Of a stretch of DNA of 64,000 bases, positions 36,921-62,400 are shown piece by piece. This stretch comes from Psammoneis japonica (taxonomy: Eukaryota). Within the stretch, counting starts at the first letter, position 1; each line of letters opens with the position of its first letter. The translations under genes were made by a program, and so were the position numbers. The notes below the pieces were generated by a model. It was not told where the DNA came from. It saw only the letters and a program-made list of their open reading frames with translations, and made no database searches. Location: the NCBI GenBank assembly GCA_008632985.1, contig QPGO01000174.1:1-64000 (forward strand). Direction: 5' to 3'.

Positions 36921-37214
36921 TTGTCACAGTCCCAGTGCTTAGGGAGTCTATCATACCGCTATCCTCATTGCCCTTCGGTGTCATTGGATTGGCTCCGCCG
37001 TGCCAACAAAGACATTTGACATTTACACTGCAGGGGGATTCTATTTCTTTTCGTTCATTGTTTCAACAGTGTGGTCGATCGTCGGGCGACGTAAAAATAT
37101 TTGGCAGCGCAATAAGCTGCAATCTTTGAGCAGAAGAAACGATTCTTTAAATCACTGCCTAATACAGAATTAACTGTCTGTTTCAGAGTAACAGCTGCCC
37201 CTCACCTCATCGAA

Positions 37215-38810: not shown

Positions 38811-39199
38811 GACGGGCTCCAGTCCTGGGTGGGACTTTTTGTGACATTTGCCCCGTAGAGTTCTACGTGCGAGCTCTGCACTTCGTACTCTGGTCAATGG
38901 ATGCACCCATCTTCGACATAAAAAAAATGGCCAAGTTTGCAGTGCATCTATCCCTGTTCACACTCGAAGTTTTGGACAATGCGCCTGCCCTGCGCCATTC
39001 TTAAGACACTCGAGAATGGCGTAGAAGAAAAAAATGTAAAAAGTTGTTCAATGGATGGCCTGACAAATGCACCATAAAATCACACAAAATTTCGCCAAAA
39101 TCACGTAGAAATGTACGTGCGCGACATACGACGCGATTCAAAAAACTGTCGATGTCACAGTTCAGCAGTGCGAGGTCCCACCTAGACCTGGAACGCGTC
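38811..39199 (+). mobile_element. MITE copy A (389 bp), partly spared from TpA loss
   Basis: TIR gacgggctccagtcctgggtgggac / gtcccacctagacctggaacgcgtc; TSD cacc on both sides. Confidence 0.85.
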
Positions 39200-39669
39200 C
39201 ACCGTGTTAAAAACCCCATGACAATCCTCCACAATGAATGGAAATCCAACTTTTTGTCAAAATCTGTTGTCGCGTGCTCACTTCAGTGCTTTGTCAATGC
39301 AGTCGACCGAGAAAACACTAAATGCACCCCAAAAAAAGTGAAAAACAACAGCCCCACTGCGGCCAAAACCTCTGCGTGATTTCAGCACCAAGTTGAGCGC
39401 GCCAAAAACCCTTCATCGCCAATGGCTCAACCAGCTCCCAAAACAACTTGATCATTGTCATTTGACATTGATGTCTCATTTCTTGTCATGTCAGTCCCAG
39501 TCCGCTGTCGTTGTTGTGTGTGTCCATTGCCGATGTGTCGGCGTCGTTGCCGCGATGTTTGTGTGTGAAGTGAACTCAAGTGAACATCTCTGCGAATTTT
39601 GTGGCACATTTTTGCGCGCGCACATTTTGTGCAGATCAGGCATGTGCACCGAATTTTTGAAAGTGTGCC

Positions 39670-40405
39670 ACTCCATTGATTTCCCGAGAAGTTGACATTC
39701 ATGTGCAGAGAGATGGACAGACTGACAACAGTTGTTTTTGGCACTCTCCTGCACAATTTCTACGTGATGACTCTCAGGACCCGAGTGATTCCCATTGCTG
39801 AGACCATCACGCATTGATTGCATGCAGCATGCTGCAATGCTCAGAGTGTGTCCCTGCGCACAGCGAACGACCACAAACGATGATTTGTGCGTGAAGCTCC
39901 CTCTCGTGCTCACCATTGCAGAGAAACGCACGCAGTGCGTGCGCGATGGTCATTGCAAGGGCTTGTGTGCAGTGTGAGTGGTCAGTTCAATGGCAATCTT
40001 TCACGCTGCAGAGTCATTTCTACAGAAATGTGCAGAACAGTGCCAAGACAATTGTCGAAAAGTCTGTCTGTCTGTCCTCAGTGAATTTTCTAACTTTGCA
40101 AAAAATGGACTTGACTGTTTTCTGATCAGGTGCATTTTTCTTCAATGCATTTGCAAAAATGCACCTGACCCGACAACAGTCAAGTCTGTTTTTGCACAAA
40201 TTTTTACATGACAGTTTCAGCACAAAAACGTGTGGATTCCACAGGCATCCACAGCTGTTTTGTGCTTTTTGCGTCGCCGCTCATTTTCGAAAGATTCCTG
40301 TTGCAATGGGAATTGTTTGAAAAAAAATGACCTGTGATGTGAATCGCATCAGTTGCTTGTGGACGTCCACAGAATCTACACATTTTTGCACCAAAACTCT
40401 GTCAT
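39670..40405. repeat. Cluster of fold-back inverted repeats
   Basis: Diverged IR 39670-39800 / 39975-40110; hairpin 40097-40196 (gacttgactgtt..caggtgcattttt / aaaaatgcacctg..aacagtcaagtc); IR 40208-40255 / 40355-40405. Confidence 0.75.
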
Positions 40406-41514
40406 CTTCTCAAAACTTTTGCAAAAAAGGACATTTTTCATTGGCGCTGGTCCAAACAATTTCTGTGCATTCAAGCCAACCCCAACCGAGTGAAAAAAGA
40501 AAATGAAAAAAGATGAAATGGCTCCAAAAGCTTGAGCTTACCCAGATTTTCACCCTCGACTCTTTTTCAACTCGGCCGAAACAAAAAAAGAGCCCGACTC
40601 TTTTTTCACAAACCTGGGAGCATGAAAAAAGAGAAAAGAGTGATGTGGGCCACAAGCTGTCACACATTTCGCACACGCGTCTTGGTTTGTGTGGGACACC
40701 AGCAAAGCAAGCCAAAGTTTGGCTCATGCGCCACACCGTCAAGTCACCATGGCAGTCTGTGATTGTTTTTGACGACTTCTTTCAATGTCATGACTGCAGA
40801 AGTGATGCCGGTTGACAATTTGAAGCAGGTGTGACATGTCTCTTGAAGGAATTGGTGAAGCATGTAGCAGCTCTTCTGCAACAGACCTTTTGTCTTCAAA
40901 TGATGTTGCCAGTCTTCACGTGCATCACAGAAAGTCAACACACAAGGTCCCTGAAGCAGATCTGTGTGACACAGGAATGACCGTGCTGACCAATTCACTG
41001 CAGATGCGACTCATTCAATGGGGCTGTTCTTGTGTTGTTTGATTTTAGATCAGGGGCTCAAAATGGCCTGAGAAGTGCACAAAAACTTTCCACTTGACAA
41101 CCATTTGAGTCACCCCACAAGCCTGTTGCATTTGCACTGAACAAAAAAAGAAATGGAGCCCACAGACCAAGAAAAAAATGGAGGTTCTGGTGGTGCCATT
41201 CTTGTTGTCACAAGGTGGAACTTCGATGCCGTCATGGGCCGTCATCTTCATTGTCATGTGAGGCCTCTTGCTTTGCATGCCCAAGACACCCAGACATTTG
41301 GCTTTTTAATTTTCGCGCCGGTCAGGTCACCAAAACGACAAAACGAAAAAAAGAGTTGAGATTGGCTCTTTTTCATTTGCTCAGCTGGGGTTGGCCTCAT
41401 CAAACAATGACTCTGCAGCACGAAAGATTGCTGCTGCATTTTTTTTTCAGCTCAAATTTGGCCAGAAAAGCTCATGATTTTCTGCTGAAAAAATTTTTGC
41501 CACACTTGCAACAC

Positions 41515-41910
41515 GACACGTTCCAGGCCTGGGTGGGAGCTCGAAGCACTGACGTGTGACACAATTGTTTTTCATCATCCGTCACATGTTTCGCGCGCAC
41601 ATTTCCACGTGTGACATTTCAAAAAATTGTTCCAGACTCGCTGTTTTGCAAAACCCCAGACATTTCATTTGACAAAATTGCAGGAACACAAATGGGCCAG
41701 GTGCATTCTTCAATGTCTGAAGAATGCAACTGGCCAAGCAGAAAATGATGCACTTCAATCACAGACGAGTTTGTGCATTCGCAAAATTGCCTCATTTTCT
41801 GTTGGTGATCATTGACACATTAATCACCTGATGATTTTACTTTGGAGCTCACACGCAGAATTCTGCGGGCCCAATGTTGCACGGATTCCCACCTTCATCT
41901 GGAACGCATC
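41515..41910 (-). mobile_element. MITE copy B (396 bp), inverted relative to A and C
   Basis: Ends gacacgttccaggcctgggtggga / tcccaccttcatctggaacgcatc; TSD acac on both sides. Confidence 0.85.
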
Positions 41911-42349
41911 ACACGGTGACCATGGCTGCTGCTTGTGATGATTCAGGCGAGTGCAGTGGAGGGGTTCCACTGCAAACAATGGGAATCTTTCAAAAATGAC
42001 CCACAATGTGAAACCAACAAATTGCTCAAGGACGTCTGCAGAATCTTCATGTTTTTGCACCAAAGCTGTTGTCTTCTCAAAACTTGTCCAAAAAAATGGA
42101 CTTTGCTGCCAACTGACCCACCCTTTTTTTTTTCAAACGTTCTTTTTTTTTTTGCTGGCAGCAAGCCCAATGTGTGCACATGGACCCAAGTGCAGTTTGC
42201 AACAAGCAATCAATGCTCGTGTGTTGTCAATCAATGCACTGGCAATGACAGAAAAATGCAAATGCTCTGCATGCATCAGAGCATTAAATGCAAAGATCCC
42301 ACACAAAATCACAAACCTTCAAACATGTGTGTTTGACATTTCAAATTTT

Positions 42350-44450
42350 CCATGACATTTCAAATGCAACGACAACGGCAACCGTGAACGCAACACACCC
42401 CATCAATGACCACAAACTCACCTTGACACTGCCATGTGTCGACAGCTTGCAATTCATCTCAAATGAACATGCCTTGCTGTGCTTTGAAAATGACAACCTG
42501 CATTGTCAGAGGTTGAGATTTAGCTCCTCTCCACATCCACAGATGTGGCTTGCAAAAAACCCAGTGTTAAAAGTCGACATTGAACTTTCTAAATTGCAAA
42601 AAGGGTCCCCCAGATTTTGGACGAATGCACGCTCCAAAACAAAATCACACAAACAAAACATTGCTCACATCTGAAATTACTTCATTTGCAACATTTGTGA
42701 TGCAAGCAAGCAAATCTCCACCCATGGAGATTTGCTCAAGACCGGTGGTTGAAGGGTTGGGGTGTGCATCTTGTGTGGTCCAGCTGGCAGGGCTGTGGCC
42801 AGCTTCTGCTGGTGTTTCAAGAAATCTTCCATTCATCCATTGCCAGTGTCTTTGCAAGACAGTTCATTTTCTTTTGTTGGGAGGAACGTGTTGGAAGCAT
42901 TTGTTGACAAACACATGCACAGTTGGTGAACCCAATCAGTGCCACCTCCATTGGTTGCCTTTGACCACAAATGCACCAGAGTCCTGAGGTTTCTGGTCAC
43001 CAAAAATTGGATCACATGAGCCAATGTCACCCACCCAAATTTGCCATCATCTGGGGTGGGTGCTTCTGAAGACACTTCAAGTCCTCCAACAAAAACAAGA
43101 GCATGTCATGGTGTGCCTGTGTGTTGGTGGACAGATCACGTGGTGCCAAGGCATCCTGATGGAGCTGCCAGTTTTGTTGGTGCAAGCAGACGAACCGCCC
43201 TTGTCAGTGCTTGGCATGAAACCCAAATGTTGCACCAGGAGCAAGAGTGTTCACAAGCTTTCATCTTCACAATGAAGATGCAGAACAACCAGGGTTCAAG
43301 TGGATGTCATTGGCACACATCAGCTCCTGTCTGGTCTGTGCACAAGCCCATTGGAAGAAGGAGATCCTTCTCTGGATTGAAATCTTTGGGGAGATTGTTG
43401 CATGTGTTGGAGTGCCATTTGTTTCAAACTGTTTCTCTGAGGTTGCAGTCATCTGCAGGAACAAACTTTTGGAGCTGTTCATGCATCGATTGGTTGACAT
43501 TGAGATTTTGATGTCGTCAAAAAGGGTGCAGGGCAGCAAGCAAGTCCCGGGAAAAACTTGGTGCCCACCAATGATGCATGTGTCTGGCTTTGGCATGCAC
43601 ACCTTTGTGCTGTCTCTTTTCAGCAACTGTTTGTGCCAAAGAGCCTTGCATGCATTGAGCTTTTTTCTTGTGGAGACATTGCAGCAGAGTGAGCAGCAAA
43701 TCGAAAAATCCTTGAGTGGCACTGGAATTTTGTCACACAGTGTGATCAGCTCAAGACAAGCTTCCTCAGCCAATTTGAGGCTGCAACCAAGTGGAAGGGA
43801 TGACTGTTCCTTGCCAACATCATCAGGGGGGTGAGCCAGCAAAAGGTGCTCTTCTTCATCAATGCCGCAACCCTTCGGCAGAGTTGGTGCCGGGAAACAT
43901 CTCCAAAAGACATGACTTGTCCTTGTTGTCTCCATTGGAATGAGATCCATTGGTGCATGCAGTGTCATCATCTTGTTCAACAGAGGCACTGTTCTCAAAA
44001 TCCACATCAGCGGCACTGAACTCTGCATCACATCCTGCCATGGCACCACATGACAAAAGGAAGGAAACAGCAGAAGAGCCAGATTGGCTGGAGGGTGCCA
44101 ATGAGGACTCCTTGTTGCTGTGTTGACAAACAAGCAAAGCAGTTGCTTGGGACAGCGTGCCCAAATCACTGGCAGCAACATCAACACAACCAATTTGGTG
44201 AAGCATGCACTGGCAATGGTGGGAACAAACCATGCCCAACAATTGCAATTTGCAGGGTGGGGATTGCCAAGATTGACCAAATCAAAGAGAGAGTCGCTGG
44301 AAGTGAGTGAACTGATTGATTTTAAAATTGGGTTGTTGTGCAGGCATGAAAGCTGACTGAGAATGCAAATGCCTTGCGGCTGGGCAGACATGAATGTTGG
44401 AATGATGGGAAACAGAATTTGAAAAATCAGCAATTAAAACATTCAGTCAC
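42350..44450 (-). mobile_element. Second, more decayed Plavaka-like transposase remnant
   Basis: 'LELITLCDKIPVPL', a 'W..GFMP'-like segment near 43220 and 'FFGDQKPQD' near 42990, in the expected order. Confidence 0.4.
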
Positions 44451-46857
44451 AGCCAAATGCAATGTTTTTGAAACTTGGGCAAGTGAATTTGAGTCATGTC
44501 AGTGAACACATGACAACAAATGAAACCAATGGCAATCCATTGTTTGGGGCTTGACATTTGCAAATGCAGGAAATTCTAGATTGCAGTGGCAAATGGCCGG
44601 GTGGCAAGGCACACATGACCGGCGCTGGGAGGAGTGCTGACAAAACAAACACATCAGAAAACAACACCAAGTTGTGGCAACCATGGTGCAGAGACTTGTC
44701 AATCCAGCCGAGTGGAGGGCAAGAGACCATGTCAAAGGAAAGGTGTTTCTCAGTGTTGCACTCATCTTTGATGCAAGGCAGCTGGAGGAAACCTGCATGC
44801 TGTGCAGAAACTGCGCCCCCAGAACAGTGGGCCAACGCTGATGGACGGAATGCCAGCAGACCTGCCAGAAGCAAAGCAAAAAACACACCTGCATTTCCTG
44901 TGGATGAAAATGAAACAAAACAGGTTGCACCAGGATTGACCAGCAATGAAGTGATCCAATGCATGTCAGGCCCAGCAAGATGAATTTCACAGCAAGCACC
45001 ATCACCAAGGATTGCCGCGGACAAAGAGATGACAAACTGATGTTGGGGACATGTTGTTGCTGATGATGCAGTGCTTTGTGCATGCTGCAACAAGAACAAT
45101 TGCATCTTGCCTTTGCCGGAATGATTCCAGGATTGATCGTTGAATCCAACATTGCAGATGGTGCTCTGCAACTGCTTGTTGTGACTGGTTGTGGGAGATG
45201 TTCATTGGAAGAAAAGCCTCTCTGACAACACAAGGTCAGGCACGTCGTGTGCCAAGGCATTCACCCACATGCTCCTGCAGAACAATTTTGCAGCATGGCA
45301 CATGGATCACAAGAGCAACAACAAGGACAGTTGTTTGATGTCAGACTGCAATGTGGAGCTCGACGACCAAGGAAGCCCCACCAGAAGGGAAGACTTGTGT
45401 GAGAAGATGATGCCAGATGCAACCGTTGGATCAAGCTCATTTACCATTTTGGAAAAAGACCTGAAGAGTCAACAGAGCAACGCACAGTGGAGGAAATGTC
45501 AAACAAATTCAAAGAGGCATGGGAGAAGTCCACATTGATTGTTTTGACAGAGGTCACGAGCAAGCTGGAAAGCAACAAGAGCTTGCCTGACAGGGAATGC
45601 AGCGCCAAGAAAAGAAAGTGCTTGAGATGCCTGAAGCACTCCATGGCAGGGAACTCCAGGAATGGAGTGGAAGAAAGTGCACCCAGGACCTGATGCAAGA
45701 TGCCCAGGACTTGCAAAGGATGGTCCCTGAGGGCAAACAAGTTCTTTGAGAAACTGGTGAGGGAAATCAAACAAGACATTGTGAGTGAACAACCAGGTGG
45801 ATGGGAGGATTAGCACAGGAAGTTTGCAGCAGGTTGCAATGAGAAAGTGGAGAAAGACAACAACGGGTCAGGGGACAAGGGTGACCACATGGCAAGCTGC
45901 GCTGAGATGCATGAGCTAGAGTTGATGCCAGTTCAGTGGATTGCAGAGTGAATCTAAATTGAAAAACTGAATTCCAGCTGGCAAGTGAGCCAGAAGGATG
46001 CATCACAAAATGGCCAGTTGGGACACCAACCACCCAATCCCTTGTCAGTCAGTTGTCAACAGCCATCAAATGGAGTGTCATGCCAGAGTTAACTTGTTGC
46101 AATGCAACGAACTTGTTGGTTTGCACATCCTTGATTCAAAACCATGGACATTTGTTGGAGGTGCCAGGTGCTCATTTTTGCACAAATCACACTTGTTTGT
46201 CACAAACAACTGTGGTCAGTGACAAATCTGACTCATTGGGACATGAACACATCGACGTGCTTGCGCTCACACATGTTTTGTCAGACTGAGGTCTGGCCAT
46301 CTGTGATTGTGAGGATTCATTGATTCGCCCCCCTGATGATGCAAGGCATTGCAGCTGAAGGTTGCAATGTTTGGACATTGATTTTTGACAATGCAGCAAT
46401 GACACAAGATTGCATTGTGTGATTGTCCTTGTCAGGCACAGAAACAAAGGGGTGTCAGAGTTGTCCACTGTGCTGAGCACAATCACCAGTTTGAAAGCAA
46501 GCGCGCACACTGACAAGTGCAAAATTCAAAAATCCATCATCTCAAAAAGGAGAAGCAATGCTGTGTTGCATTCACAAATTGAGGTGAACAGTTGAAAGAC
46601 AAAAGCAACAGGCACTCAGACATTTGTTGACATTGACGACTTTTAAAAAACATGGCCAATCGATTGGCCAGGAGCCAATCTCAAATCCCAACCCAAAAAT
46701 GACCAAGGCAGTGCGAAATTCGGTTTGTCACATGTTCATTTGCAAAGCAACCCATGTCATGAAGTCCCAAAGCCTTCGAAAGTCATTGGATGCCATTTCA
46801 TGCACGGCAAAGACCGCTTGCAAATTCGGTCATTTTGAAAGTGGCCAGCCCCAAACC

Positions 46858-47041
46858 TGAGCGGTCTTGACAAGTTGTCCACGAATGCTTTCTAAAAATT
46901 GTGGGAAAAGCTGCAATTAACTGCAGCCACAGTGTTTGGGTTTCTGTTGCAGAATTTCTTCGAGGTGTCAACAATCCCGGTCATTCAAATCTCCCGAATC
47001 TTGCAGCTGCTGATGCAATTGTGACGCAGAAGTTTGCTTCA
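46858..47041 (-). repeat. 3' LTR (184 bp)
   Basis: Direct repeat of 52386-52573. Confidence 0.95.
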
Positions 47042-50000
47042 CTCTTCCCTTCCGCGATTCATGCGAATGCTTTGAATCGCAATCCACTTGATCATGCCGA
47101 AGTCGACACGGCAAAATGCACCAAATGTTGATTCTTTCAAATGCATGAGGCACTCTTTGCATGGTGACATTTCCATTCACATGAACCTGTGTGATGGGAA
47201 AGGGACCAAAAGATCTTTCTTCCAATTTGGTGGGATCGTCTGTTTTGACCAAAATTTGCTGCCCGACACGACAATCGAAAAAGTGTCTTTTGAGATTTTG
47301 CCGACGTGAGTTGTCATCAACCAACACTTGCCAATGATCCTGAACAGCAATTGAATCTGCAATGAGAGGCAAATCGAGGAACATGTCTCTCTGGCAGATG
47401 AGAGCTCCTGGCGAAATTCCCAAAACTCTCAAGGTGGCACATCGTAGACCGTGCATGGTTGCAGCCAATGCGTTGTCAACAATCTGTTGAGCCTCTGTCA
47501 TGTTGTAAGGAGGATGTCCCCTGACTGTGGTTCAAATGATGTTGCCAGCCATTTGATGCATTCTTTTGCAAATGGCGTTGGCTTGAGGATTTCTAGCGGT
47601 GGTTTCCACGTCTTTGATTCTCCAGCTTTTGCCAACAGAATCTGAAATGGCTCACCAATGAATTCACCGCCCTTGTCATGGATGCAGCGGTTTGGCTTTG
47701 GATGTCTTGCCAACCAACAATTGGCAAACTTCATCTGCACATGATCTGAAGTCTTGTTGTCAATGTGAGCCAATTCCACAAGGTTGGAAACAGTGTCAAT
47801 CACTGTCAATGCATCAAACTCATTTTCCTGTTGTTGCACTTGTGCTTTCCAAGGACCAATTGAGTCAATGGCCACTTCATCCCAAGGAACTAAAGGAGCT
47901 TCTCTTGGTGGCAAGCAACCACATCCAACTCCCCAAAGTTTGTTCCTTTGGCATGTGTCGCAATGATGATTTTCGACCAATCGGCGCAACGACAGATGAC
48001 AGCAATGCATGCGAATCGTGCAACAGAGCTTTTGCATGCCACAATGCCCCAAAACTTGATGACACCACCTAACCACAGGCGCCAACAAAGCAGTTGGCAA
48101 AGCAATTTTCCAATCATTTTCTTGAACGTTGTTTTCAGGCCTCCAACAAATTAACGGAACTCCGCCAACGCATCGAGTCGGAAATCGAAGCGGATTCCTC
48201 TGCCGCTCTTGATTCAGCTCACAATCTTCAAACTGAAACCTTTGCATGTCAGGATTGTTCAAGGGGCATTGCATTTCTTTCAGACTTGGACAACTCAAAA
48301 AACAATCCACCAATTCTTGATCTTGAACGGTGCAGAATAGAGTTTTTAATTCCGGGCCCAAATTTTCCTCGAGCGACTCGTCTTCTGGAGCCACAGCAGC
48401 TGGAGGAACCGAAAAATCCACAACAGCGCCTTTCGACTCCACTTTAGAAGAACTCTTCCCTTCCACGGTTTTCTCCATGGGAGGAAATTGTGAAAAGAAA
48501 TCAGCTAGAATGTTCTCTTTGCCTTTAACATGTTCAAACTTTAGCGCAAATTCTTTGAGAAAAAGTCGCCAGCGGAGCACTCGTTGCGCATTGAGCGTCT
48601 TGAAAGCAAAATTCTTGTGATCTGTGTGGACTGTTGTTTCAGCTCCCAACAACATAGAGCGAAATTCTTTGAAACAAAGAACTGCAGCAAGCATTTCTTT
48701 CTCCACAGCAGAACAATTCTTTTGAGCTGCGTTGAGTTTTTGGGACCAACATGCGATCAGCTTGCCATTCTGCATGACAACCGCACCAAGCTGACAGTCG
48801 CTGGCATCTGTGTAAATTTGAAAAGGAAGGTTGTGATCGGGACAAGCAAGTGACACATCACCCACCACAATGGCCTTGATCTCCTCAAAGGCTTTCTGAC
48901 AAGCTGGAGTCCACTCAAAATGTTGTTTTCCAGTCAAATCGGTCAATGGCGCCAAAACGTGAGATCGCCGAGGCCACATGTCACGATGACAAGTGACGGC
49001 TCCAACAAAAGATCTAAGTTGTGCATGGTTCTTGGGAGGAGTGAGCTTGAGCACAGCCTCTGCTTTCTTCTTCCAAGGCTTGACACCTTCTGGAGTCATC
49101 CAATGTCCCAAAAAATCAGTTTCTTGAATGGCCCATTTGCACTTGAGTGGGTTCACTTTCAAACCGTTTTGTTCCAAACATTGCAGTGCGGCACTCAACA
49201 CTGCCAAATGCTCAGACCAAACCATTGAGAAGAGGCCAACATCATCAACAAAACAATCTGCATCAAGCTCATTCATCACTTCTTCAATGACTGCTTGAGC
49301 AACATCTGCTGCTGGCTTCAAACCCATCGCAAGCCGACAATGTTGAAACTTGCCGCGCAAGGAGTGACAACAGTGCACAGTTCTTTGGATTCTTCATCTG
49401 GCTCTAAAGTGTGACAGAACATGGACAGATCCAACTTGGTGAAGCACTTGCACCCTTTTCTCTTCTTGACAATGTCTTGTGTTCTTGGCAAAGGACAGAT
49501 CAGCCTCTTCAGTGCCTTGTTGAGCGCACAAAAATCGGATGCCCACCGCACTCGTTGATCCTTTCTAGGAACAACAAATGAAGGAGATGCCCAACAGGTG
49601 GGACCACATGGCCTCAGCACTTCTGTCTGAACTAAATGCTGAAGTGCTTTCTTGAAAACCTCATCATGAACCTTTGGAACTGAGTGTGGTCGAGCATGAA
49701 CCGGAATCGCATTAGGATCGATTTCCAAATGAACCAATTCATGTGGGTGTTGACCCAATTTTCCGTCGAACACTTTTGGGAACTTTGCTGGCACTTGCTG
49801 CAACTCCAGTTGTTGCTCTCTTGAAAGGTGTGTTTGCCTCTTAGCCACTTCTTCCGGAGACACTGACTCGCACTTGGCGTCCAGAATTTGCACAGCAAAT
49901 GCACAAAACTCGACCACGTCGATTTCTTCTTCTTCGACTTCTGGACCTGCAAGAGCAAAACAAGCATTCTCTGCATTGTCCCAAAAGGCAAGTTCTTTCA

Positions 50001-51866
50001 CAGGTGTGAACTTGTCCAACCACTTGACTGTCCTTGATGAGAAATTTACATCAACACCCGCCTTGGTCAAAAAATCCAATCCAAGAATCACGTCGCAACG
50101 ACACGGTGTTTGAAATGTCAGAGCTTTCTGGAAATCAATGCTTCTTGATCTGTCAAATTCAGGCAGCATCATTGTTTCCAAACCGACTGTTCTGCTGCTT
50201 TTCATTGGCCCTGCAGCTGCATTGCATGCCACTGTTTTCTTGAGCAGGCTTGGAGCAGCTCCACGTGCCAAACATCGCTCGTGAACAAGAGTGGTCATGC
50301 TGCCTGAATCAAATGATGCTCTCAACAAACGAGAAGAGTGAGCTCCATTCATTTGTTTGCATGCAAGCACTGATGCAGGCACCATGTTGGGATTCATGTT
50401 TTTTGTTTTGGGTGCCGGCATGCCAGCATGAAGCAATCCCATCGGCTCTTCTTGATTTTTCACGCCGTCAATTTCATGTGACAAATGTGCATCATGTGAA
50501 GATTTGTGTTCAATTGGTGCATTTGTGTCAACAGCAATGGTGTCGTCAACTTCAAAGCTGACACCAGGACTGGAGCAGCACTCCAAACTGGATCATGATC
50601 CAGGTCCTCTTAGATGTGGACCTTGTCCGACATCCGTTCCTCCTGACATCTCGTCAGGACCTCCTGGCAGACCACAGCCTGCCATGTCAAAATGGCACAC
50701 ATCTGCACCCCATTCTTGTGACTGAGTGTCAGTCGGAGGAGCTCATTGAGCCGGATGAGCATTTGATTCTTCTGAACTGCTCTGCACCTGATTTTGATTC
50801 GCACAAAAATTTTGAGGTGAATTCTGCGGACCGCATCCTCGGCCCACACTGTTTTGGTTGTAACCACGGCCATGTCCACCTTGACCACGTCCAAAACCAT
50901 TGTTGGGAGCACATCCACCATCGCCACGTCCACGTCCAGCGCAGTTGGTGTTCTGAGGACCACAAAATTGGCCTCCATAATTTCCTCAGCCTGGACATGG
51001 GTTTCGACCTCGTCCACGACCTGCATCTCGGCCTGCACTTGGCAAACCTCGGCCACCTCTCTGAAAATGAGGATTTGGACCGCAATTTGGGCTCTTGGGA
51101 TTCTCCCTGCAATTTTGCCACAGATGGGGTGTTGCAGAATCCTTGTGCAACCAACAACAAGAATCGGGACCAAACTTCTTCCCATTCCCGGCAGATTCCG
51201 TGTCTCCAGCCTTGCGCTTCTTGGAATCATCATCAGGCTTGGCAGCACCTTTCTGATCAGCAAATCCTTTCTCGTTGGACACACACTGAATGACATCTTC
51301 CAAAGAATCAGCACTGACATCCTTTCCAGCATGCACACAACTCTGTTTCCATGTCATCAGCATGCCTGTGAATGTGATGTTCTTGATCTGCTGCTCATTG
51401 AGCAAAGGTTCAGCTCCAGGTGGCTTGCCAGCACAACGCGACATTTGAATCATCCTGTCAGCACACTTGCGAGGAGAATCGCCAAAAGGTTTAGAAGAAT
51501 TTTTCAAAAATTCAAACATCGCATCACGCACTTGATGATTGCAACATTGCTGACAAAAGCGTGTGATTTCTGCGTCAAACCTGGCCATGGTCCGATCTGC
51601 TTCTGCGACACCTGAAACCAAATTGCTCCACGTGTCTTGAGCGTTGTCTTCTAACACTTCTTCAAAATGGGTGAATTTTTTCAGGTCCTTCATCACAATC
51701 TCAGTGTTCGGCACAGTTCTCAAAGTGCTCTGCAGTGCAGAGCAAGCACTCGATGCCGCACTTGCCGGTGAACTGAGGGCACATTTTCTGTTTCTTGGCA
51801 CCATCGTCACAGTTCTGTGCGAGTTTCACTTTGTCCAAATCTCCGTGTTTGAAGGTTGGTTTGCAT

Positions 51867-52262
51867 GATGGGTTCCAGTCCCAGGTGGGACTTTTTGTGA
51901 CATTGGGCCCACAGAATTCTGCGTGCGAGCTCCGCAGCAAAATCACCAAGCAACGCACACATGAATGATTGCCAACAGAAAAAGAGGCAATTTTGCTGAC
52001 GCATCTCCTCCTCCACACTTGAAGCACATTCTTTGCAGCATGCCCGGGTGTGTTCTTCAGACATTAAAGAATGTGCCCAGTGCGTTTGTGTTGTCACAAA
52101 CGCAGACAACAGAAAGCCTTTGGCTTCGCAAAACAGGCAGTGTGGAACAAATTTTTGTGACAGAACACGCAGAAATGTGCGCGCGAAACATGTGGCGGAT
52201 GATGACAAACAATTGTGTCACAGTTGAGCAGTGCGAGGTCTCACCCAGAGCTGGAATGCGTC
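51867..52262 (+). mobile_element. MITE copy C (396 bp) nested at the 5' end of the Gypsy gag
   Basis: Ends gatgggttccagtcccaggtgggac / gtctcacccagagctggaatgcgtc; TSD gcat on both sides. Confidence 0.85.
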
Positions 52263-52385
52263 GCATGCAAAGCACCGCGCACGGTGCTCTCAGCAAAGCT
52301 CTCACCAAATGCGACACTGCGTTTGAGGCAAAGGATGCACAACAAAGAAAGGAGAAGGAAAGAACAAGACACAGTGTGATCACAG

Positions 52386-52573
52386 TGAATGGTCTTGACA
52401 AGTTGTCGGTCCACGAGTGCTTTCTAAAAATTGTGAGAAAAGCTGTGATTGACTGCAGCCACAGTGTTTGGGTTTCTGTCGCAGAATTTCTTCGTGGTGT
52501 CAACAATCCCGGTCATTCGAATCTCCCGAATCTTGCAGCTGCTGACGCAATTATGATGCAGAAGTTTTCTTCA
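52386..52573 (-). repeat. 5' LTR (188 bp)
   Basis: Direct repeat of 46858-47041 with a 4-bp indel. Confidence 0.95.
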
Positions 52574-52669
52574 AAACCTGCCTGCGCCTGGTGCCCCGAC
52601 TGCCGGCAGACTGAATGCCGCAGCAACTGACTTTGTCTTGCCCGTCTGTCTCTGTCAGGGCTTGGGCAG

Positions 52670-54870
52670 GGAGTTGCATGAAATGTCAAAATTTTCATTT
52701 TTCCCTGCAAAAACGCACAGAATGTCAGAGAGACCTGCCTGCACGCGAGTGCCACCACAGTCTGCACGATGCTGCGAAAGTTTGTGCACTTGCCACCAAA
52801 ACGCTGCTCGCACTTTTTGCCAGGGGATGTGCCACAGACACACAACATTCGAAGCATTTGGCTGCAGGACAAATCCTGTGTTTTTGGGGCTCTGTTTGAT
52901 TTGACAAAATGTCGAAATTCCATGGAAGGTTTCTCAACAATTGCCTTTTTTCCCAACTGGTGCTGAGACAAAATGCCCCCAGAAATGCAGGTGGTTGTGT
53001 CTTCACCAGACCCCGCCAAAATTTCTCGTTTGAGAAGACAACCCACTGGATGGAGTGAGAATGTTTGAATGATGTTGCACAGTGCGTGAAAAATGACAAC
53101 CTGCGCTCACTCAATTGGGTTGGCATGGTGACATGAAGCACTGAAATGAACGACAAAACGGTGTGACAATCGATGATGACGACACCTGCCTTCTATCGGT
53201 GCCTGCCTGTGAGCTCATTTTCTGCTGTGTTCAAATTTGCATGTCCATGCACACATCACAAGCAGTTGCTGCTGTGTGAGCACATCACGTTGTCACGGCG
53301 TTTCTGCATGCATGATGACACGCATGGCACCGTGCGACTGCAAGAGACGCCGTTGAGTTCCCTTCTCGATCCCGAACTCCGATTTGAACCAGTCACGACT
53401 GTCTCAACCTCATCGCTTCGTGCGACAGCACAGATTTCAAATTCAAACCCGCCAAATGGCTCCAACCGCCAAAACCAAAAAAGGCCTCTTGGGGGGGGAC
53501 TGGGGCTAGAGACTGTTTTGGATTGTTGTTGTTCAAGATTCCCTTGCATGCCGTTCCAAAAGCGTTCCGAGAACGTTCTCACATGCACTGATTCGCGCCG
53601 AAATCAAACTTTGGAGCCGGTCAATTCGCCAATGAGACATGTGATGCATTGCAATTGGTGCACTGTTGTTGGAACTGTTTGAGTGTGGCACAACAGTGTA
53701 AAAGTTTAACAGATTATGTGGATTTATTGCAAAAAGGTACACCCGTCAAAACAGGTTTCTATTTTCTCTAAGAAAAAGAACGGCTGGCAGAAGTCTCAAC
53801 AATTTTGAGTTACAGTGGCTGTGGGTTGAACCACAAGGGTGTGTTGTAACTGCTGGCATTGTTTGACAATAAACCACATCTGCAACAACCGCCAACAGCT
53901 CCAACACGGAAACACCATTCGACGAAATGGGCATTTCGTCATTCCCGTGTTTCCACCGTTCCGGGACCGCACCAAAAGCGTTCCAAAACCGCACCAAAAG
54001 CGTTCCCGAAGGGAATCTCTCTAAAAGGCCTGACATCAAAACATTGTTTTTAGACGTTGGAAACGAATGAGAACCCTGCCCGACAACACATGGAACCATC
54101 AATCCACCTGCGGCAACAAAAACACTGCTGCATGGCAACAGCGCGGCATCAATCATTTGAGCACAATGTAAAATGACAAATGCGCAACACACGACTGTGC
54201 CACTCACCACGCAAATGCGCCTGCCCAGAGCCACAGTGGATTGTCTTGCAAGGACAGTCATTCAGAGGCAGACAAGATCGGAATGGATTTGGAACCAATG
54301 GGTTCGCGTCACACTTGAGCACTTTGCAGGACATGCAGCAGTGTGCGAGTTGTGGGGCCTTCTTCAAGATGAAGGCAACCTTTCTCATGGGTTCCTGCCC
54401 ACTCACTTGTTGTGTGCCCTTGTTTTCTGAATCTGCATTGTTCTGAAACCATTTTGCCAGGAATCTGTGGTGGAGCACACGAAGACACGATAAGAAAATG
54501 GTTTTGTGTCGGAACAGAGTCAACCGCAAATCTGCACTTGTTGCGCACCATCATTCCAATCTCTTTTTGAAAATCAACGCACTGGCATTGGCTTCACCAT
54601 CTTGTCATCTTAGATTGACTGGCAACACAGGTTTGCGGATGACAATGGCATGCACGGTGATGGTGGACGGCACTGACTTTCGCTTCGCATCAACGAACCA
54701 TCAACGCGTTCGCCGTTCGACCCCATCTAATCTGGTGTCTGGTGTTCGCATGTTCATAGCCCTAAATGCAACGTTTTAGGGGATGTGTAAAATGAATTAT
54801 CGTAACGAAAAAACACGAAAAACCACGAAAAACAGGGAAAAACGAAAATTTCGACATTTCATGCAACTCC
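52670..54870 (+). mobile_element. TIR DNA transposon containing a PIF/Harbinger-ISL2EU-like transposase remnant
   Basis: About 38-bp TIR ggagttgcatgaaatgtc(a/g)aaattttc(a/g)tttttccctg at both ends; 3-bp flank cag on both sides. 54300-54690: 'HFAG...VCELW.LL...PTHLLCALVF' and 'CTVMVDGTDFR'. The remnant could belong to a nested element. Confidence 0.75.
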
Positions 54871-55137
54871 CAGGGGGGAGACACAGACGGATGTTTTTAT
54901 TGCCATATCATACCGTGTGAAATTATTCATACGGTGTATGTACTGTACCGTACGGCACGTAGGGTGTAGGGCCCTATACCAGGTAGCTAGCTATAGGTAA
55001 CGAAGCACGATGGCGGCTTGAAACCAAAACTCTCTTCCTCTTTTACCGATTTACAATACTGTAAAGTACCTCTGGATACATCGTAGGACCCGGCAGGAAA
55101 GTCACTTCATTTGCAGGAGAAAAGAGTAGCTGAAATT

Positions 55138-56476
55138 ATGACCGATCCATTGCGATGCGTCAAGAGAAAACTGTTGTTTCCAATGATCGTGTGGGTTTTC
55201 ATCTGCATTCGCAGATTCAGTCTAAGTCACTCTCGCTTAATGGCGCAGTTTTCCCCGTCAGGTTTCGTCGACCATCAATCCATAATTGCAAGTGGATCAT
55301 CAGTGTCGTACAGCAAGAACATTTCGATTGTTGTGGGGTTGCGCGGCGAAATGGGAAATCAGATCTCCAGAATAGCGTTCGCTCGTGCAGTGCAGCTGTG
55401 GGCCCGAGACGACTTTGGGATTCACAACACTGAGCTTATCATTAAAGCAGAGAACGCACAAGGAGATTGGTACAAGACTCATGTTGAAGAATCAATGGTG
55501 ACGACGAAACGATGTTTCCCAAATATGCAGCAATACGATTTTGGAGCTGGCAACACAGAAGAAGTAGCAGCTGCCTTTGCGCAGCAATTGGAGTGGCTAG
55601 GAGAAGCTAATGCATCTCGACTTTCTCTTTTAGAAGATTCTTGTTTTGATGAAAATTGCCTTAACGATGCTCTCCGGTATCTGAAGACGCTGTTACAAGC
55701 CCCACCTCATCCATCCAACACCAACGCATCAATATCGATCCCGATATTGCTAGCATCACAATATAGCAATTATGCATTTGTGGTGATGGACAGATACTAC
55801 CAAGAGTTTCGGAACCTGTTTGTGTTCGATGAAGAAGTGTGTTGTAAACTACGACCGGATCCAGACGAGAGTGTGTTTGTAAGTTTCATATATTTATCAA
55901 CAAAAAATGCTGGCGTTAATGTTATCTTATCACGTCCGTGCGATTTTCCAGCACTTTCGAAATTTCAAGCGTGAATTGAAGTCGAGATCGAATGATTTAG
56001 GTTATGTAGAATTGAGCCCGAACAAAACAGCCTATGAATTGTTTGGCCATTTACGGCCAGGTGACAAGGTCGCGATAACTACACGATTCGGTGGAGACGC
56101 AGCGCAGAAATATGTTTCCGCGCTTGAATCACGTGGTTTGGTTGTTCGCTTGGTCAAGGGACAGTCGGCAGTTGAAGATTTCTGCTTCCTTCTCTCTGCG
56201 CAAAAGGAACTAGTAGGAATGGCAATGTCCACCTTCACTATTTGGGCAGGTTACATTGGCCATGCAAAACGAGTCGTTTGGTATTCCATGGATACTCCAT
56301 CTCGTCGTCGACGCTTTGGTGACAAACTGTTTGAGCACTACAATTGGACAGATCCTCAACTGAAACAAAGGGTGATTTTTCAGCTGTACAAGTCTGAAGA
56401 AGCAGAGAAACTTGATACAAAATTGAGACTCGAAAGGGGATCGCCGCCCTTGATCAAATCGCGCACGGCATTCTAA
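55138..56476 (+). CDS. Alpha-1,2-fucosyltransferase-like (GT11-like) gene; exons 55138-55878 and 55952-56476
   Basis: N-terminal TM and 'LRGEMGNQ'. A 73-bp intron gtaagt...ttttccag joins 'PDPDESVF' to 'HFRNF' in frame. Also 'DFCFL' and 'STFTIWA'. Normal TpA. Confidence 0.8.
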
Positions 56477-57700: not shown

Positions 57701-57958
57701 CATTCTCATGGACAATTCACAGCCACAAAATCACTCATTGCTCCTCTCACTTTTCTCACAAAATCACACTTGTGACACCACTTGCACACCCTCTCTGAAA
57801 AAGACACACCACTCACAACCATGGCTGCAGCCATTGCTTTTAACACCTGTCTTGATGGGACAGTTTTTGCAGCAGGAGCCCAGAGCTGCACTGTCACCCA
57901 AGGCTTTGCTGCCATTGAAGACTTGTGTCAAGTGCCTTCCTCTAAGATTGGCGACATG

Positions 57959-58405
57959 TGCAGCATGCATGCAGACAAAAGGTTGTTTTTGTCACGCCCT
58001 TTGTGACATTTAAAGGCTGCAACACATTGCCGTGATGCATCAACTCTTGTCAGCAGCTGTGTGTTGCACTCCTCCCCATGTGTCACGCGTCCGTGCGGTT
58101 CTTTACCAACGTGTGCTGACACTGCACGTTTTTGGCAGAACAGTGTGGGTGCGCACGAAGGAACATGCAGAACTGCACAGAGTTTTGCGCGTTCGACAGT
58201 GATCAATGTTGCTGCAGACAACTCCCACTCAGGGTTTCGAACCCCTGGCCTCCTGCCTGATGGTTGCGATGAACCACTCCGCTGTGAAGTCACAATGCAG
58301 CATGCATGCAGACAAAAGGTTGTTTTTGTCACGCCCTTTGTGACATTTAAAGGCTGTGACACGTCGCCGTGATGCATTGGCTCTCATTGGCAGCTGTGTG
58401 TTGCA
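57959..58405 (-). mobile_element. TRIM-like mini LTR element (447 bp) inserted in the Copia gag
   Basis: 110-bp direct repeats 57959-58068 and 58296-58405 (TG..CA); PPT ggggaggag (58069-77, minus); TSD catg. Host reads 'KIGDM|IKGF' across it. Confidence 0.85.
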
Positions 58406-59381
58406 CATGATCAAGGGATTTTGCAAGGACACATTCAATGATGATGTGGCCAACTTTCCCCACTTGGCAGTCAGGAAGTTTTCAATTCACTGTGCACATG
58501 TCTGGGCTGTTGGGCCATCAGGAGTCAGCCTCTGCAAGCTCAGGTGTTTGTGGGCAGCAACATGATTGCTGCATGGGCTGACTGCCTTGCCAAGTTGCAC
58601 AACATTCATGGGAACAAATTGGAAGATGGTGCCACCACTGTGACCCCTCTTGCTTGGATGCACAGTTTTTTCAAGTGAGAGGAGCTTTTTGGGCTAAACT
58701 CCAGCACCATCACAATGCTGTGACCAGAGCACTGCCACTGGGCATCATTTGTAAAGAGTCAGACATTGCTGGTTGGATGGATTTGTGCTGTCACGTGCAA
58801 CACCATCCATGAAGACTTGACTGCTGCTGTGACCAAGCATGATGCACAGGCCTGTGGGACTGTGTGTGTGGCAGGTCAAAGGAGCCAATCATTGAAGGAC
58901 CTGGGTGGGCCTTCATCAAACCATTTGAGGGTTGCACCTGGAATGGACAAGAAGCCTTTTTGGCTTTAAAGAGGCCAGGCAGGCAAAGGCTTGGCTGCCA
59001 CTGCCACTTGGAAGAACTGCGCATGTGCTCAGACAGCAACCGCAAAGTGCACTGGGGGCTGCCATGCTTTTGACCAGCACACTCAGCACTGGCAGAGGGC
59101 TCACAATGATCTCCTCAACCTGAAGGGGCCTGTGGCTGACACCAAGAAGGTCGCTGTTTTTCTCAAAGGGTGGGGTGCTGACCCTCAATTGAAGCTGGCA
59201 AGAACGTCGTGAATGGCAACAAAATGCCAAGCTCTTGAGTTTTGAGTTTTGCCAGCAGCACATGAAGACCGCTGTTGAGAACACCAACAATGCCATGGAC
59301 AAGCAGTGCACTGTTGGCTCAGTTCAGAATGAATGTGATCCCAAGAAGAGGGGAAATCTGAACAGGAAGAAATGGGACAAG

Positions 59382-59491
59382 TGCAACACACAGCTGCTGA
59401 TGAGAGTCAATGCATCACGGCGATGTGTTGCAGCCTTCAAATGTCACAAAGGGCGTGACAAAAATGACCTTTTGTCTGCATGCACACTGCA
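59382..59491 (+). mobile_element. Solo LTR of the TRIM, opposite orientation
   Basis: Reverse complement of the 110-bp repeat; TSD caag on both sides. Confidence 0.85.
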
Positions 59492-62400
59492 CAAGCCCAG
59501 GATTGGGGCCAGACACCATCCAAAGGAGGGCCAATGGCCAGATCTGGAGTTGCAAGTGCAAGCCAAAGTTGAAGAGCTCCACAAGAACAGCATTGAGCCT
59601 GAGCCTGAGGAGCTGACAGCTGAGGCCATGGGCAGAGCCGATGCTGGCATGCAGCTCAGGAGGGTGGTGCACAAGCCCAGGCCTTTGGTTGAAGATGCAA
59701 TTGAGCATGAACCCTTGAAGGAGAAAACTGATCAGGAATGATTGGCTGCACTGACAAGCAAGAGGACTCTTGCAGTGTCACCTGTTGACAACAGCAGTCC
59801 TTGTCTGACTCGCTCATGTGGTGTGTGTCTGTCGGCACTGCTCCTGCCAGCTTCACGTCAGTTTGCTTTGCATGTGCAGTTCAGTGCACCTCAAACTCAG
59901 TCAACACTGAATCTTCAGACAAAGTGTCGTGCAACAAGCTTGACTGACGCATGGATGGTGCATGCATTGCTGGCTCAGCTCAAGCCCCATTTTCTGATCA
60001 CAACCACACCATTTTCAGTGCGGCCATGCTCTGACAAGTGTGAGCCAGTTCACAATGTTCCCACACAGTCAGCTGCCACATTGGTGCTGCATGAGGCCAT
60101 GACCATGCATTTTGGGGGCTGAGTGAAGAACTCGTTGACATGTCCCAACCAATTGAGAGCCAATGGCACAACTTTGGATGGCGGTCCAAAGCAGTTTGAC
60201 AGCATGAGCTCACACTTGATCTCATTCCCAGACTCAAAAGTCTGGACTCCACTCCTGGAGGAACTGCCATGTCTGGAACTCACATCCAATGAGTTTGCAC
60301 AGAACAAGGATGTTGTTGAGTTGAAGCTCAACACTGTTGGCAGTTTGTCTCAATCCTTGGGGCTCAGCCCAAAGGGGGAGCACAGGGTTGCGAATGAAGC
60401 GTGCTGCATTTCTGTGACCTGGCCATGCAATGACTGGTGACGACTCCATGCCATGCAAGTGCGTGGCAGCCAATGCAACCATTTTCCACCTCAACTTTGA
60501 AAGGGGACAGCCTGCATGACAAATGTGAACAAGATGTGCACAAGGATTGTGAGAAGCATGTGCAGGTGTTCACACTCTCAACCTCTGAAAGCATGTCCAC
60601 TCTCACACACAATGTTTTGTCCAGACATTGGGGCACTGGCCCAACTGCCACAAAGAACATGCTCAGGGTGACAACTGAAGCCAGAGTCAGGAATCTGTGT
60701 GCACCATCCAAGAGGAAGGTGTGGAAGAAGGCTCCTTGGCTCAAGTTCCTGATTGTGAATGACGAGTTTTGCATGAACCAAATTTTCTCAAAGGTCAAAT
60801 CAATTCATGAGGACATTGCTGGCTCAATTTTCAAAAAACAGCAGAGAACATGGCTGACCATTTCTGCCCTTGGGAGCTGATGCTGCCCAGGGGTGGCAAG
60901 CTCCTTCGTGCAAAGGTCAAGAGTTGCAAACCTGATTTGGGTGGAGTGCCAATTGGGGCCAGGAATTCCAGACTTGTCCCAGACTCAGGTGTGCTCACAC
61001 ACAAAAAGATGCCCCTTTTTGCATGAAACACGCAGTCCAAACTTTTGGTGCAATTTTCAATGGTTGAAATGCAATGATTTTCAAATGTGTTGTTGTGGGC
61101 ACACACAGAAAGGTCTTGTGCATGCACCCATGCACTTGAAAGTGAGAATGGACTGAGTTGTTGATTTCCAAATTGTGCCGCATGATCAGAGCTTGGTTTT
61201 CTGATGTGCAATTTGCAACTGTGGTCATGTGTGGAGAGCTGATCGTTTCCTCCCGAGTGACTGCAAATGACCACATTTTGCGTTTGACTTTTACATTTCA
61301 TGTGTGCAAAGCATGTGGTCATTGTCCAAAGAGACATTTCTCAGATGAACAATTTCATGTTGAAGCATGTCCAAATTAAACACGAAATGACAGTGCCCAG
61401 CTTGGGGTGACAGACACATCAGATGCAGATGCAGGGTCATGCCATTGGCGTCAAACAGCAGCATTGGGACCCAGTTGATCCCATCTGGAACAGCCCATGG
61501 CAGTGGAAGGCACCCATTTTGACAGAAGTTAAACAGGGGCAAAGTCATCACACTAAAGTTGGTCCTCTGCGCAGAGCTCCGCATGTGTTTGTCTGTCTGT
61601 TGCCAGTTTGTGCCAACATTTGGGGGAATGAAAGAGCTGCCAGTGTCTGCGTCCCAAGTGACCAATCATTGGAGACAAAGCAACAATGTCTGCTCTGCCT
61701 GCAGAGCAACAAGAGACAACAGCCAAGCATGTGGCAGCTCGCAGACACAGTCATTGAAGAGACGGACCGATTGAGTGGGAGATTCATGCGCACACAGAAG
61801 CACAATTTTCTCATGTGATTTTAGATTTTTGTTTCCACTGAATGCAAAAAAAAACGTTTGGGAGGAAACTGTTGATGCCACATTAAAAGTCTTTTTAAAA
61901 ATGCTTGAGCACAACTTGCTCTCAACGGATTAAATCAAACATGTGTTGATTTGCAAGTTTCAGAAGACGTGAGAAGAAGTGAAGCTCAGCCTGCACAATG
62001 TCATCAACTTTGGACCCTTTTTCACTGTTCCATTGGCATGGGTGACTCACGCACTTGCATCAGTTGATGCCATGGAGGAAATGTGCATGGAGGTGGGAAA
62101 AAAATGGTCCTTGGAGGCAGATTGTGAGTGAGCTGAGGCTCAATTGTTGGCGCTGACAGTTTTGGTCTTCTTGTGCCATGCCGCAGCCTGCATCAAGCAT
62201 TTTCATCATTGTGGCAGATGCCACAGACTGCATCAAATGCTGCGGTTGGTTGAAAAAAGTGGGCCATCATGGTTGCTAAAAGTCACAGCCATTTTGGCAG
62301 TCAGTTGGCTCAAATTTAGTGACTGATGGATGGGATCTTCAGGTTGAATGGAAGGATGGCATGTCCAACTGGCACAAATGAGATTGCTGGTGAGCCAGCT

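Follow-up and report, generated by a model that had tools for sequence, protein, structure and literature searches.

Directional loss of TA and CG dinucleotides in a dead Ty3/Gypsy retrotransposon of the diatom Psammoneis japonica

The first 64,000 nucleotides of contig QPGO01000174.1 (forward strand; GenBank assembly GCA_008632985.1) from the diatom Psammoneis japonica, referred to below as the window, contain a dead Ty3/Gypsy-type long terminal repeat (LTR) retrotransposon of 5,716 bp, which lies on the minus strand and carries a nested insertion resembling a miniature inverted-repeat transposable element (MITE). The observed-to-expected (o/e) ratio of the dinucleotide TA is 0.15 over the whole window and drops to 0.08 within the element, whose CG o/e is 0.59. 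We consider it probable that this dead Gypsy element, lying in a silenced repeat block, was altered in place after its insertion by two separate mutation processes, one acting at TpA and the other at CpG.

The element and its surroundings

An earlier reading of this locus (the original prediction) had described a Gypsy LTR pair, which was recovered at 46858-47041 and 52386-52573 with TG..CA ends and an AAACC target-site duplication; the end previously given for the span, 52578, takes in the right-hand duplication. The direct repeats with TG..CA ends, the short target-site duplication and a pol order with integrase last are the features by which Ty3/Gypsy elements are recognised, and the domains RVT_1, RT_RNaseH_2, Integrase_H2C2 and rve follow one another in a single frame, with PF00077 upstream in homologues. 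The features were placed as follows.

39001-54750, no strand: TA-erased block holding the element, delimited by 1-kb, 500-bp and 250-bp counts
46853-46857, no strand: target-site duplication AAACC, left copy (same 5-mer at 52574-52578)
46858-47041, minus strand: 3' LTR as the element is read, 184 bp with TG..CA ends, 2 TA and 6 CG
47042-47053, minus strand: putative polypurine tract, a 12-nt purine run abutting the upstream side of the 3' LTR (role suggested by position and purine content)
47103-47618, minus strand: pol piece C, C-terminal part of integrase, third reading frame (tblastn, open reading frame (ORF) boundary)
47621-49354, minus strand: pol piece B, C-terminal half of reverse transcriptase (RT), RNase H, and zinc-binding and core domains of integrase (Pfam, tblastn)
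49360-50421, minus strand: pol piece A in the second frame, spanning the protease region and the N-terminal half of RT (tblastn)
50422-51867, minus strand: presumed gag region and leader ('gag' from position only)
51868-52262, no strand: nested MITE-like element of about 395 bp with terminal inverted repeats of about 25 nt, member of a very high-copy family
52386-52573, minus strand: 5' LTR as the element is read, 188 bp, 4 bp of which are an insertion compared with the 3' LTR, TG..CA ends, 2 TA and 8 CG
52574-52578, no strand: target-site duplication AAACC, right copy (read from sequence)

By tblastn with four homologues, pol was matched in three frames (50421-49360, 49354-47621 and 47618-47103) and is therefore broken by two frameshifts, one near 49355-49359 between pieces A and B and one near 47619-47620 between pieces B and C. 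Piece C also contains an in-frame TGA (47532-47534) at a column where homologues have Arg. Piece B matched RVT_1 (E 2.7e-09), RT_RNaseH_2 (E 1.1e-26), Integrase_H2C2 (E 0.0015) and rve (E 0.0045); the last two matches fall under the Pfam cut-offs, in a region covered by tblastn with homologues, and the homologues of piece A carry PF00077 and PF00078. The ORFs 50610-51353 and 50986-51825 in the presumed gag region had no Pfam match, and no primer-binding site was recognised beside the 5' LTR by inspection without a tRNA set for comparison. The closest pol proteins are 53-65% identical, and those with names come from the diatoms Nitzschia inconspicua, Epithemia and Mayamaea; the best relative, P0121, is 65% identical, enough for polarity in conserved columns and not for site-by-site ancestry. 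An exact 28-nt stretch of the LTR had no match in Joint Genome Institute (JGI) metagenome contigs, and no further LTR copy was found within the window.

The element was inserted into older repeat DNA, the flank being much poorer in CG than the element itself: the DNA to its left (42-46.8 kb) holds 1-6 CG per 250 bp, with a TA loss equal to that of the element. The target DNA is itself a multi-copy repeat, as 38 contigs of a public run cover position 46827.

Direction, rate and context of TA and CG loss

The direction of change was read from pol. The three pieces were translated separately and each aligned with 40 homologues. A column was kept if 30 or more homologues were present in it and 80% or more of them agreed, and each change was traced along a single-nucleotide path starting at a codon for the consensus residue. 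Out of 395 conserved columns, 317 retained the residue and 78 had changed. The changes comprised 19 TA>TG, 14 TA>CA, 7 CG>TG (plus 3 ambiguous with a transversion), 7 CG>CA, 6 other transitions (plus 2 ambiguous), 17 transversions and 3 multi-step changes, and none of the 78 created a TA or a CG. With 33 TA and 14-17 CG losses and none in reverse, both dinucleotides were therefore lost directionally in the line of this copy. The post-insertion loss of both TA and CG that the original prediction had read from the LTRs thus finds its support mainly in pol.

The effect was most pronounced for tyrosine, of which 1 of 20 conserved residues was kept (11 changed to Cys, 7 to His and 1 to Phe), and other conserved residues were largely or fully retained (His 13/13, Trp 13/13, Gln 15/15, Cys 6/7). 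The homologue P0121, scored in the same way as a control, kept the residue at 354 of 378 columns and Tyr at 16 of 18, and a separate run with 60 other homologues again found 1 of 19 conserved Tyr in the element. The Tyr content of its pol is 0.2%, compared with 3.2-3.5% in eight homologues. Since 19 of 20 conserved Tyr are missing, the loss would be later than the last autonomous transposition. TG and CA outcomes are interleaved in pol, even in adjacent codons, and both strands were altered (19:14), which excludes editing of the sense RNA alone.

The two losses proceeded to different extents. In Tyr codons, 18 of 19 TA were lost (the Tyr>Phe transversion left out), compared with 8 of 19 CGN-Arg codons (11 kept; P=0.001), which corresponds to a rate of TA loss about 5.4 times that of CGN-Arg decay if both ran equally long. 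If every LTR difference is a loss, 13 CpG copies were kept in the LTRs and 5 lost, and the fraction lost did not differ between LTRs and CGN-Arg codons of pol (P=0.50); this agreement fits a CpG decay that took place wholly after insertion. CG loss is slow and the better clock; TA loss is fast and saturating.

For the spatial pattern, the window was divided into 128 adjoining, and hence not independent, windows of 500 bp, of which 127 remained after one had been dropped for Ns. TA o/e was below 0.2 in 102 of these (CG o/e median 0.29, range 0.03-0.89) and at least 0.4 in 18 (CG o/e median 0.97). On a coarser view, TA o/e was 0.40-0.67 in islands at 1-2000, 8001-9000, 29001-30000, 37001-39000 and 54751-56000, and 0-0.18 elsewhere. 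A CG o/e below 0.6 was found in 88 of the 102 TA-depleted windows versus 3 of the 25 others (two-by-two counts 88, 14, 3 and 22). The correlation between TA loss and CG loss anticipated by the original prediction is present across these windows; shared targeting and age explain it. The two losses can be told apart in space, as TA o/e was 0.03 with a CG o/e of 0.89 in 39501-40000 and 0.03 with 0.82 in 53001-53500, and at the margins of the block (39001-40000 and 53001-54750) TA is nearly gone with CG near normal (o/e 0.82-0.92). The TA:CG loss ratio also differs from block to block. The absence of TA where CG is intact, together with the variable loss ratio, therefore indicates two processes that are not tied in rate. 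At the block margins, the TA process seems to extend 1-1.7 kb past the CG-decayed DNA; the ORFs in these margins (53746-54261 and 52513-53106) had no Pfam match.

The base 3' of the changed A was T in 20, C in 6, A in 6 and G in 1 of the 33 polarised TA events, compared with T 6, C 8, A 10 and G 9 at the same position on the unchanged strand (pyrimidine (Y) versus purine (R), P=0.005). The TA sites that survive show the corresponding bias in the element and in the 500-bp windows, by approximate counts:

YTAR: 22 in the element (of 31 TA), 72 in TA-normal windows, 129 in TA-depleted windows
TAY on one strand: 9 in the element, 199 in TA-normal windows, 59 in TA-depleted windows
RTAY: 0 in the element, 113 in TA-normal windows, 2 in TA-depleted windows

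Strand-symmetrised trinucleotide frequencies fell from normal to depleted zones from 1.21% to 0.02% for TAT, 1.16% to 0.04% for TAC, 0.87% to 0.10% for TAG and 1.04% to 0.21% for TAA, and GC content rose from 45.6% to 48.7%. These counts fit a strand-wise change whose target would be the A of T-A-Y; a change of the T of R-T-A on the opposite strand fits them just as well.

The nested MITE-like element and other repeats bear on whether the DNA was altered in place. The MITE-like family has a depth of 31,000-118,000 in the public run, compared with about 1,000 over the remainder of the element, and some Gypsy-family contigs skip the MITE-like piece. Only 1 TA is kept in the nested copy (51868-52262) and 2 in an inverted copy at 41514-41911, and 14 are kept in the copy at 38811-39199, which sits at the edge of a TA-normal island. 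At seven aligned sites with TA in the latter and a pyrimidine-purine (YR) step in both others, the stripped copies read CA/CA three times, TG/TG three times and CA/TG once, with no reverse case. At six CG sites, too, both stripped copies read TG, and part of their agreement may therefore reflect shared ancestry. With this ancestry suspected, the concordance at 6 of 7 sites allowed no conclusion on whether the flanks determine the TG or CA outcome. Reciprocal CA/TG sites are the mark of an independent loss of one dinucleotide in two copies, and four such sites were found among about seven in the repeats at 57957-58409 and 59374-59493. The repeats at these positions and at 36123-36924 are short, are arranged directly, inverted or in tandem, have an identity of about 90% (or 76-78%) and differ mostly at reciprocal CA/TG sites.

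Differences between the LTRs and the dating of the insertion

The LTR alignment comprises 184 columns with 14 substitutions (12 transitions and 2 transversions) and one 4-bp indel, that is, 170 of 184 aligned columns are identical (92.4%; blastn gave 91.3% over 183 positions with gap). Five differences are CG versus TG/CA (left-LTR positions 46862, 46948, 46987, 47014 and 47025), two are TA versus TG (46919 and 47021), and one site of two nucleotides is a CA versus TG double difference (46914-46915); the others are three transitions (46861, 46885 and 46904) and two transversions (46963 and 47036). The four examples of LTR differences quoted in the original prediction were all read correctly, and its statement that most differences fall at TA, CG, CA or TG sites holds in part: 11 of 88 YR columns differ (12.5%), compared with 3 of 96 others (3.1%; Fisher P=0.024), and the TA-type differences by themselves are not above chance. 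When 12 transitions were dropped at random on the left LTR 20,000 times, 5.6 were expected inside CG, TA, TG or CA steps, with 9 observed (P=0.04), and 2.9 were expected of the CG type, with 5 observed (P=0.13). About half of all bases sit in such steps because CA and TG are over-represented (o/e 1.65 and 1.70, respectively, across the window). Taken alone, the LTR pair argues only weakly for context-biased loss, and one LTR pair does not distinguish loss from gain.

Because TA loss is saturated, the present differences between the LTRs stem mainly from CpG decay (5-7 of 14 nucleotides); only 2-4 nucleotides are TA-derived, and the other 5 are transitions outside YR steps (3) or transversions (2), the ranges resulting from the CA/TG double site, which may descend from CG or from TA. 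As to TA itself, a CTAA site survives in both LTRs, two sites are half-converted and no more than one is reciprocal. The pair under-records the TA process, its conversions being concordant, and hence invisible, or never having existed. A hand estimate from per-strand survival gives about 2 reciprocal and 1 half-converted sites per approximately 7 ancestral TA, which does not conflict with the 0-1 reciprocal sites observed and proves nothing.

CpG decay is a known bias in dating by LTR divergence. The divergence of this pair is 7.6% raw (Kimura two-parameter distance (K2P) 0.082) and 3.1% when only the 96 non-YR columns are counted. The inflation is thus about 2.4-fold, and the earlier claim that LTR dating overestimates age in this genome holds in direction. 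In this pair, CpG decay inflates the age more than TA loss does. LTR ages would be biased non-linearly, with strong inflation early and mainly CpG decay later, and all YR steps should be masked.

Candidate mechanisms and related systems

In the account that we consider probable, the first process would be a fast, TpA-specific A:T>G:C mutator that works strand by strand and converts A to G in 5'-T-A-Y-3', leaving TG on the acted strand and CA on the other, and that is near saturation here. The pattern itself is observed in pol; its chemistry may be adenine deamination in DNA. The second process would be the slower decay of CpG to TpG or CpA, of which the loss and its direction are seen in pol and the cause, judging from diatom methylomes, is probably deamination of 5-methylcytosine (5mC) in methylated repeats. 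Both would act on the same compartment of DNA, with rates that are not tied to each other.

Several observations weigh against this account. The ancestral pol residues were deduced from homologues that are only 44-65% identical, the contexts of changes that cross codons were taken from present-day neighbour bases, and the survival figures are approximate because the normal and the depleted zones do not hold the same kind of DNA. The TA-type LTR differences showed no excess in the null model (2 observed versus 2.4 expected, P=0.73). Further points came from 3,257 aligned contigs of the public run, where the variant evidence consisted of the best-supported 40 of 1,665 variant rows, with only 46915 and 46919 inside an LTR. 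At 46919, among the variants listed, all 14 other family contigs that cover the site read G, so that the TA of the left LTR may have been gained there or may be the only one left; at 46915, G makes up 2,193 of 2,228 in read depth of family contigs (11 contigs), and the CA/TG double site is more simply derived from an ancestral CG than from TA. These best 40 of 1,665 family differences polarise poorly, 9 of them looking like CG gains; the probable cause is that the other family copies have decayed too. Lastly, within TA-depleted windows the residual TA and CG are weakly correlated (rho 0.26, P=0.008), as would also be predicted if the two losses were coupled; such a weak correlation would follow from age alone.

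Coupling of this kind had been part of the original prediction, in which deamination of 5mC triggers an error-prone repair that also removes neighbouring TA, making a single process of the two losses. We regard it as very improbable. It would account for the windows shared by both losses and for the residual correlation, and it is contradicted by the windows and whole margins (39-40 kb and 53-54.7 kb) in which TA is erased beside nearly intact CG, as well as by the unequal loss ratios of different blocks; moreover, repair errors are not expected to be limited to T-A-Y or to A:T>G:C, and only 6-8 other transitions stand beside 33 TA changes. The same variable ratio and the same margins speak against a single ADAT2-type deaminase of dual specificity, which would attack both the A of TpA and the C of CpG in DNA, although the common compartment of the two losses would suit it and although the Bigelowiella natans preprint discussed below cites amphioxus and Trypanosoma ADAT2 as deaminating both bases in DNA. 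The CG decay is already accounted for by the CpG methylation known from diatom repeats, and we consider such an enzyme decidedly unlikely here. A mutator acting on thymine has a somewhat better, if still small, chance of being right: T in 5'-R-T-A-3' would become a base resembling 5-hydroxymethyluracil that pairs with G, giving T>C. As TA is self-complementary, T-A-Y>T-G-Y equals R-T-A>R-C-A, and all counts fit both readings equally; the sequence separates neither, and the adenine reading draws on the proposal in the preprint and on the known polynucleotide adenine deaminases.

The TA loss could also lie mostly before the insertion, through editing of RNA prior to reverse transcription or through mobilisation of a dead copy in trans. 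This is suggested by the TA poverty that the LTRs share almost entirely (2 TA each in 184-188 bp) and by the scarcity of reciprocal sites (at most one CA/TG site, beside two half-converted ones). About 2 reciprocal sites were, however, expected by the hand arithmetic, which is compatible with 0-1 observed, both strands were altered (19 TG to 14 CA), the non-element DNA on either side and the nested MITE were stripped equally, and host glycosyltransferase pseudogene fragments sit in the stripped DNA as well, all of which makes a mainly pre-insertion loss unlikely. In nanopore assemblies, methylated motifs are prone to systematic miscalling of A as G and of C as T, and modified repeat DNA could in principle make a long-read basecaller read A as G and 5mC as T. 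That the pattern is such an artefact is hardly credible. The public contig run, which may be the sample behind the assembly of the window, contains 0.62 of the sampled 31-letter words of 46500-53000; 473 of its contigs align at an identity of 99% or higher and its records reach 315 kb, which would be unexpected from noisy reads; the near-total loss of TAT and TAC over 51 kb and a CG o/e down to 0.03 go beyond expected miscalls; the element has frameshifts, a stop codon and 17 transversions besides; and the B. natans events came from Illumina data. We therefore return to two processes acting in place, and compare each with known systems.

Repeat-induced point mutation (RIP), known from Neurospora and other ascomycetes, is a hypermutation of repeats by transitions that turns CpA into TpA and so enriches TA and AT. 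It resembles the present case in being limited to repeated or foreign DNA, in killing transposons, in its capacity to spill over to neighbours and in upsetting LTR dating. RIP, however, raises TA, whereas TA is destroyed here and GC rises slightly; fungal RIP was rejected for its opposite direction, given a TA o/e of 0.08 in the element, a 1.6-1.7-fold enrichment of CA and TG, and changes from TA to CA or TG. RIP is mentioned in connection with fungal DNMT4 in PMC9998398.

The closest likeness is a process in the chlorarachniophyte B. natans, described in a preprint (bioRxiv 10.64898/2026.01.13.699255). In the mutation-accumulation lines reported there, 231 of 302 new nuclear single-nucleotide mutations fell in two silent viral inserts, and all A>G and T>C changes in these (230 of 231) were TpA>TpG or TpA>CpA; the mutations arose de novo, at a rate raised about 1000-fold in some cell lines, and Mettrop et al. 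propose an ADAT-like DNA adenine deaminase (10.64898/2026.01.13.699255). Both cases consist almost exclusively of TpA>TpG/CpA on both strands, in foreign or repeat DNA and with ordinary genes spared, silence being presumed here; in both, clusters poor in TpA and rich in CpA and TpG are the long-term trace, and RT and DDE domains are enriched among the TpA-poor genes of B. natans. The two differ in the host (a rhizarian there, a stramenopile here), in the DNA affected (giant-virus and virophage DNA there; LTR retrotransposons, a MITE and pseudogene scraps here) and in degree, with a Rho of 0.45 for the nucleocytoplasmic large DNA virus (NCLDV) region there and a TA o/e of 0.08 in the element and 0-0.1 in blocks here. 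A T-A-Y flank rule holds here, and none was noticed in the preprint, in which no search aimed at such a rule was made. CpG decay is superimposed here, and de novo mutations were observed there, as against a sequence trace alone here. The terms 'CpG', 'diatom' and 'LTR' do not occur in the text of 10.64898/2026.01.13.699255, its supplements lying outside this scope. We read the locus as an older and by now saturated case of such a TpA mutator, with CpG decay on top; it belongs to a kind described once, in another algal lineage.

The CG loss here is probably linked to 5mC, by analogy with other diatoms. Repeats of Cyclotella cryptica are CpG-methylated in large 'binary' blocks of up to 30 kb (PMC5124317), and CpG methylation in P. 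tricornutum is maintained by DNMT5a, as shown by knockout (PMC9998398). As in the C. cryptica blocks, CG>TG/CA is limited here to repeat blocks that alternate with gene islands, and the two outcomes are about equal (7-10 TG and 7 CA), as in CpG decay elsewhere.

Deaminases also edit retroelements in the form of ADAR (A>I on RNA) and APOBEC (C>U on cDNA), according to the Discussion of the B. natans preprint (10.64898/2026.01.13.699255). The deaminase-type signature and the 5' U/T preference of the edited A are shared with the present case. Unlike with ADAR and APOBEC, however, both strands, the flanking DNA and a nested DNA transposon were altered, and the substrate was therefore chromosomal DNA. 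A 3' pyrimidine is preferred here, whereas ADAR prefers G as its 3' neighbour. The T-A-Y preference resembles the U-A-C anticodon-loop target of the TadA-type tRNA deaminases.

More tentatively, diatoms might have a dedicated genome-defence mutator aimed at chromatin, a DNA adenine deaminase that targets 5'-T-A-Y-3' strand by strand in silenced repeats, the same system as that of Bigelowiella and old in stramenopiles, alveolates and Rhizaria (SAR), fast relative to CpG decay and independent of cytosine methylation; we hold this to be possible, though more doubtful than not. LTR pairs would then pass through a short phase with nearly all differences at TpA, after which the signal would be saturated and hidden. 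No description of TpA erasure in diatoms was found in the full-text literature, a search that left subscription journals largely outside. A TpA-erasing mutator in diatoms, if true, would be a second, distant lineage for a genome-defence-like process known so far from one 2026 preprint and would suggest that the process is widespread among marine algae. To that process the locus adds the roughly 5-fold faster loss of TA in Tyr codons than of CGN-Arg codons, the T-A-Y rule and the spatial separability of TA and CG losses. For annotation, ORFs in such repeat DNA are misleading because TAA and TAG stops vanish, and recoding of Tyr to Cys or His may serve as a quick diagnostic of the TpA process.

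Elsewhere in the window, a more decayed Gypsy-type RT remnant lies at 6489-7346 (minus strand), with 23-46% tblastn identity to the same homologues, and an assembly gap of 266 N at 19117-19382. Glycosyltransferase-like frames occur in TA-erased DNA at 14911-16275 (minus strand) and 21005-21844 (plus strand); matches in TA-erased DNA include GT90 (E 3e-16) and a GT10 fucosyltransferase (E 5e-05; 23.4 bits, just below the Pfam cut-off of 23.9). A GT47 exostosin-like frame (28681-30312), for which a homology search gave a single hit without a name, lies inside a TA-normal island, as does a FUT8-like frame (7854-9095; E 1.3e-05; 24.6 bits, below the cut-off of 27.6). The window thus looks like it holds a glycosyltransferase gene cluster with stripped dead copies.

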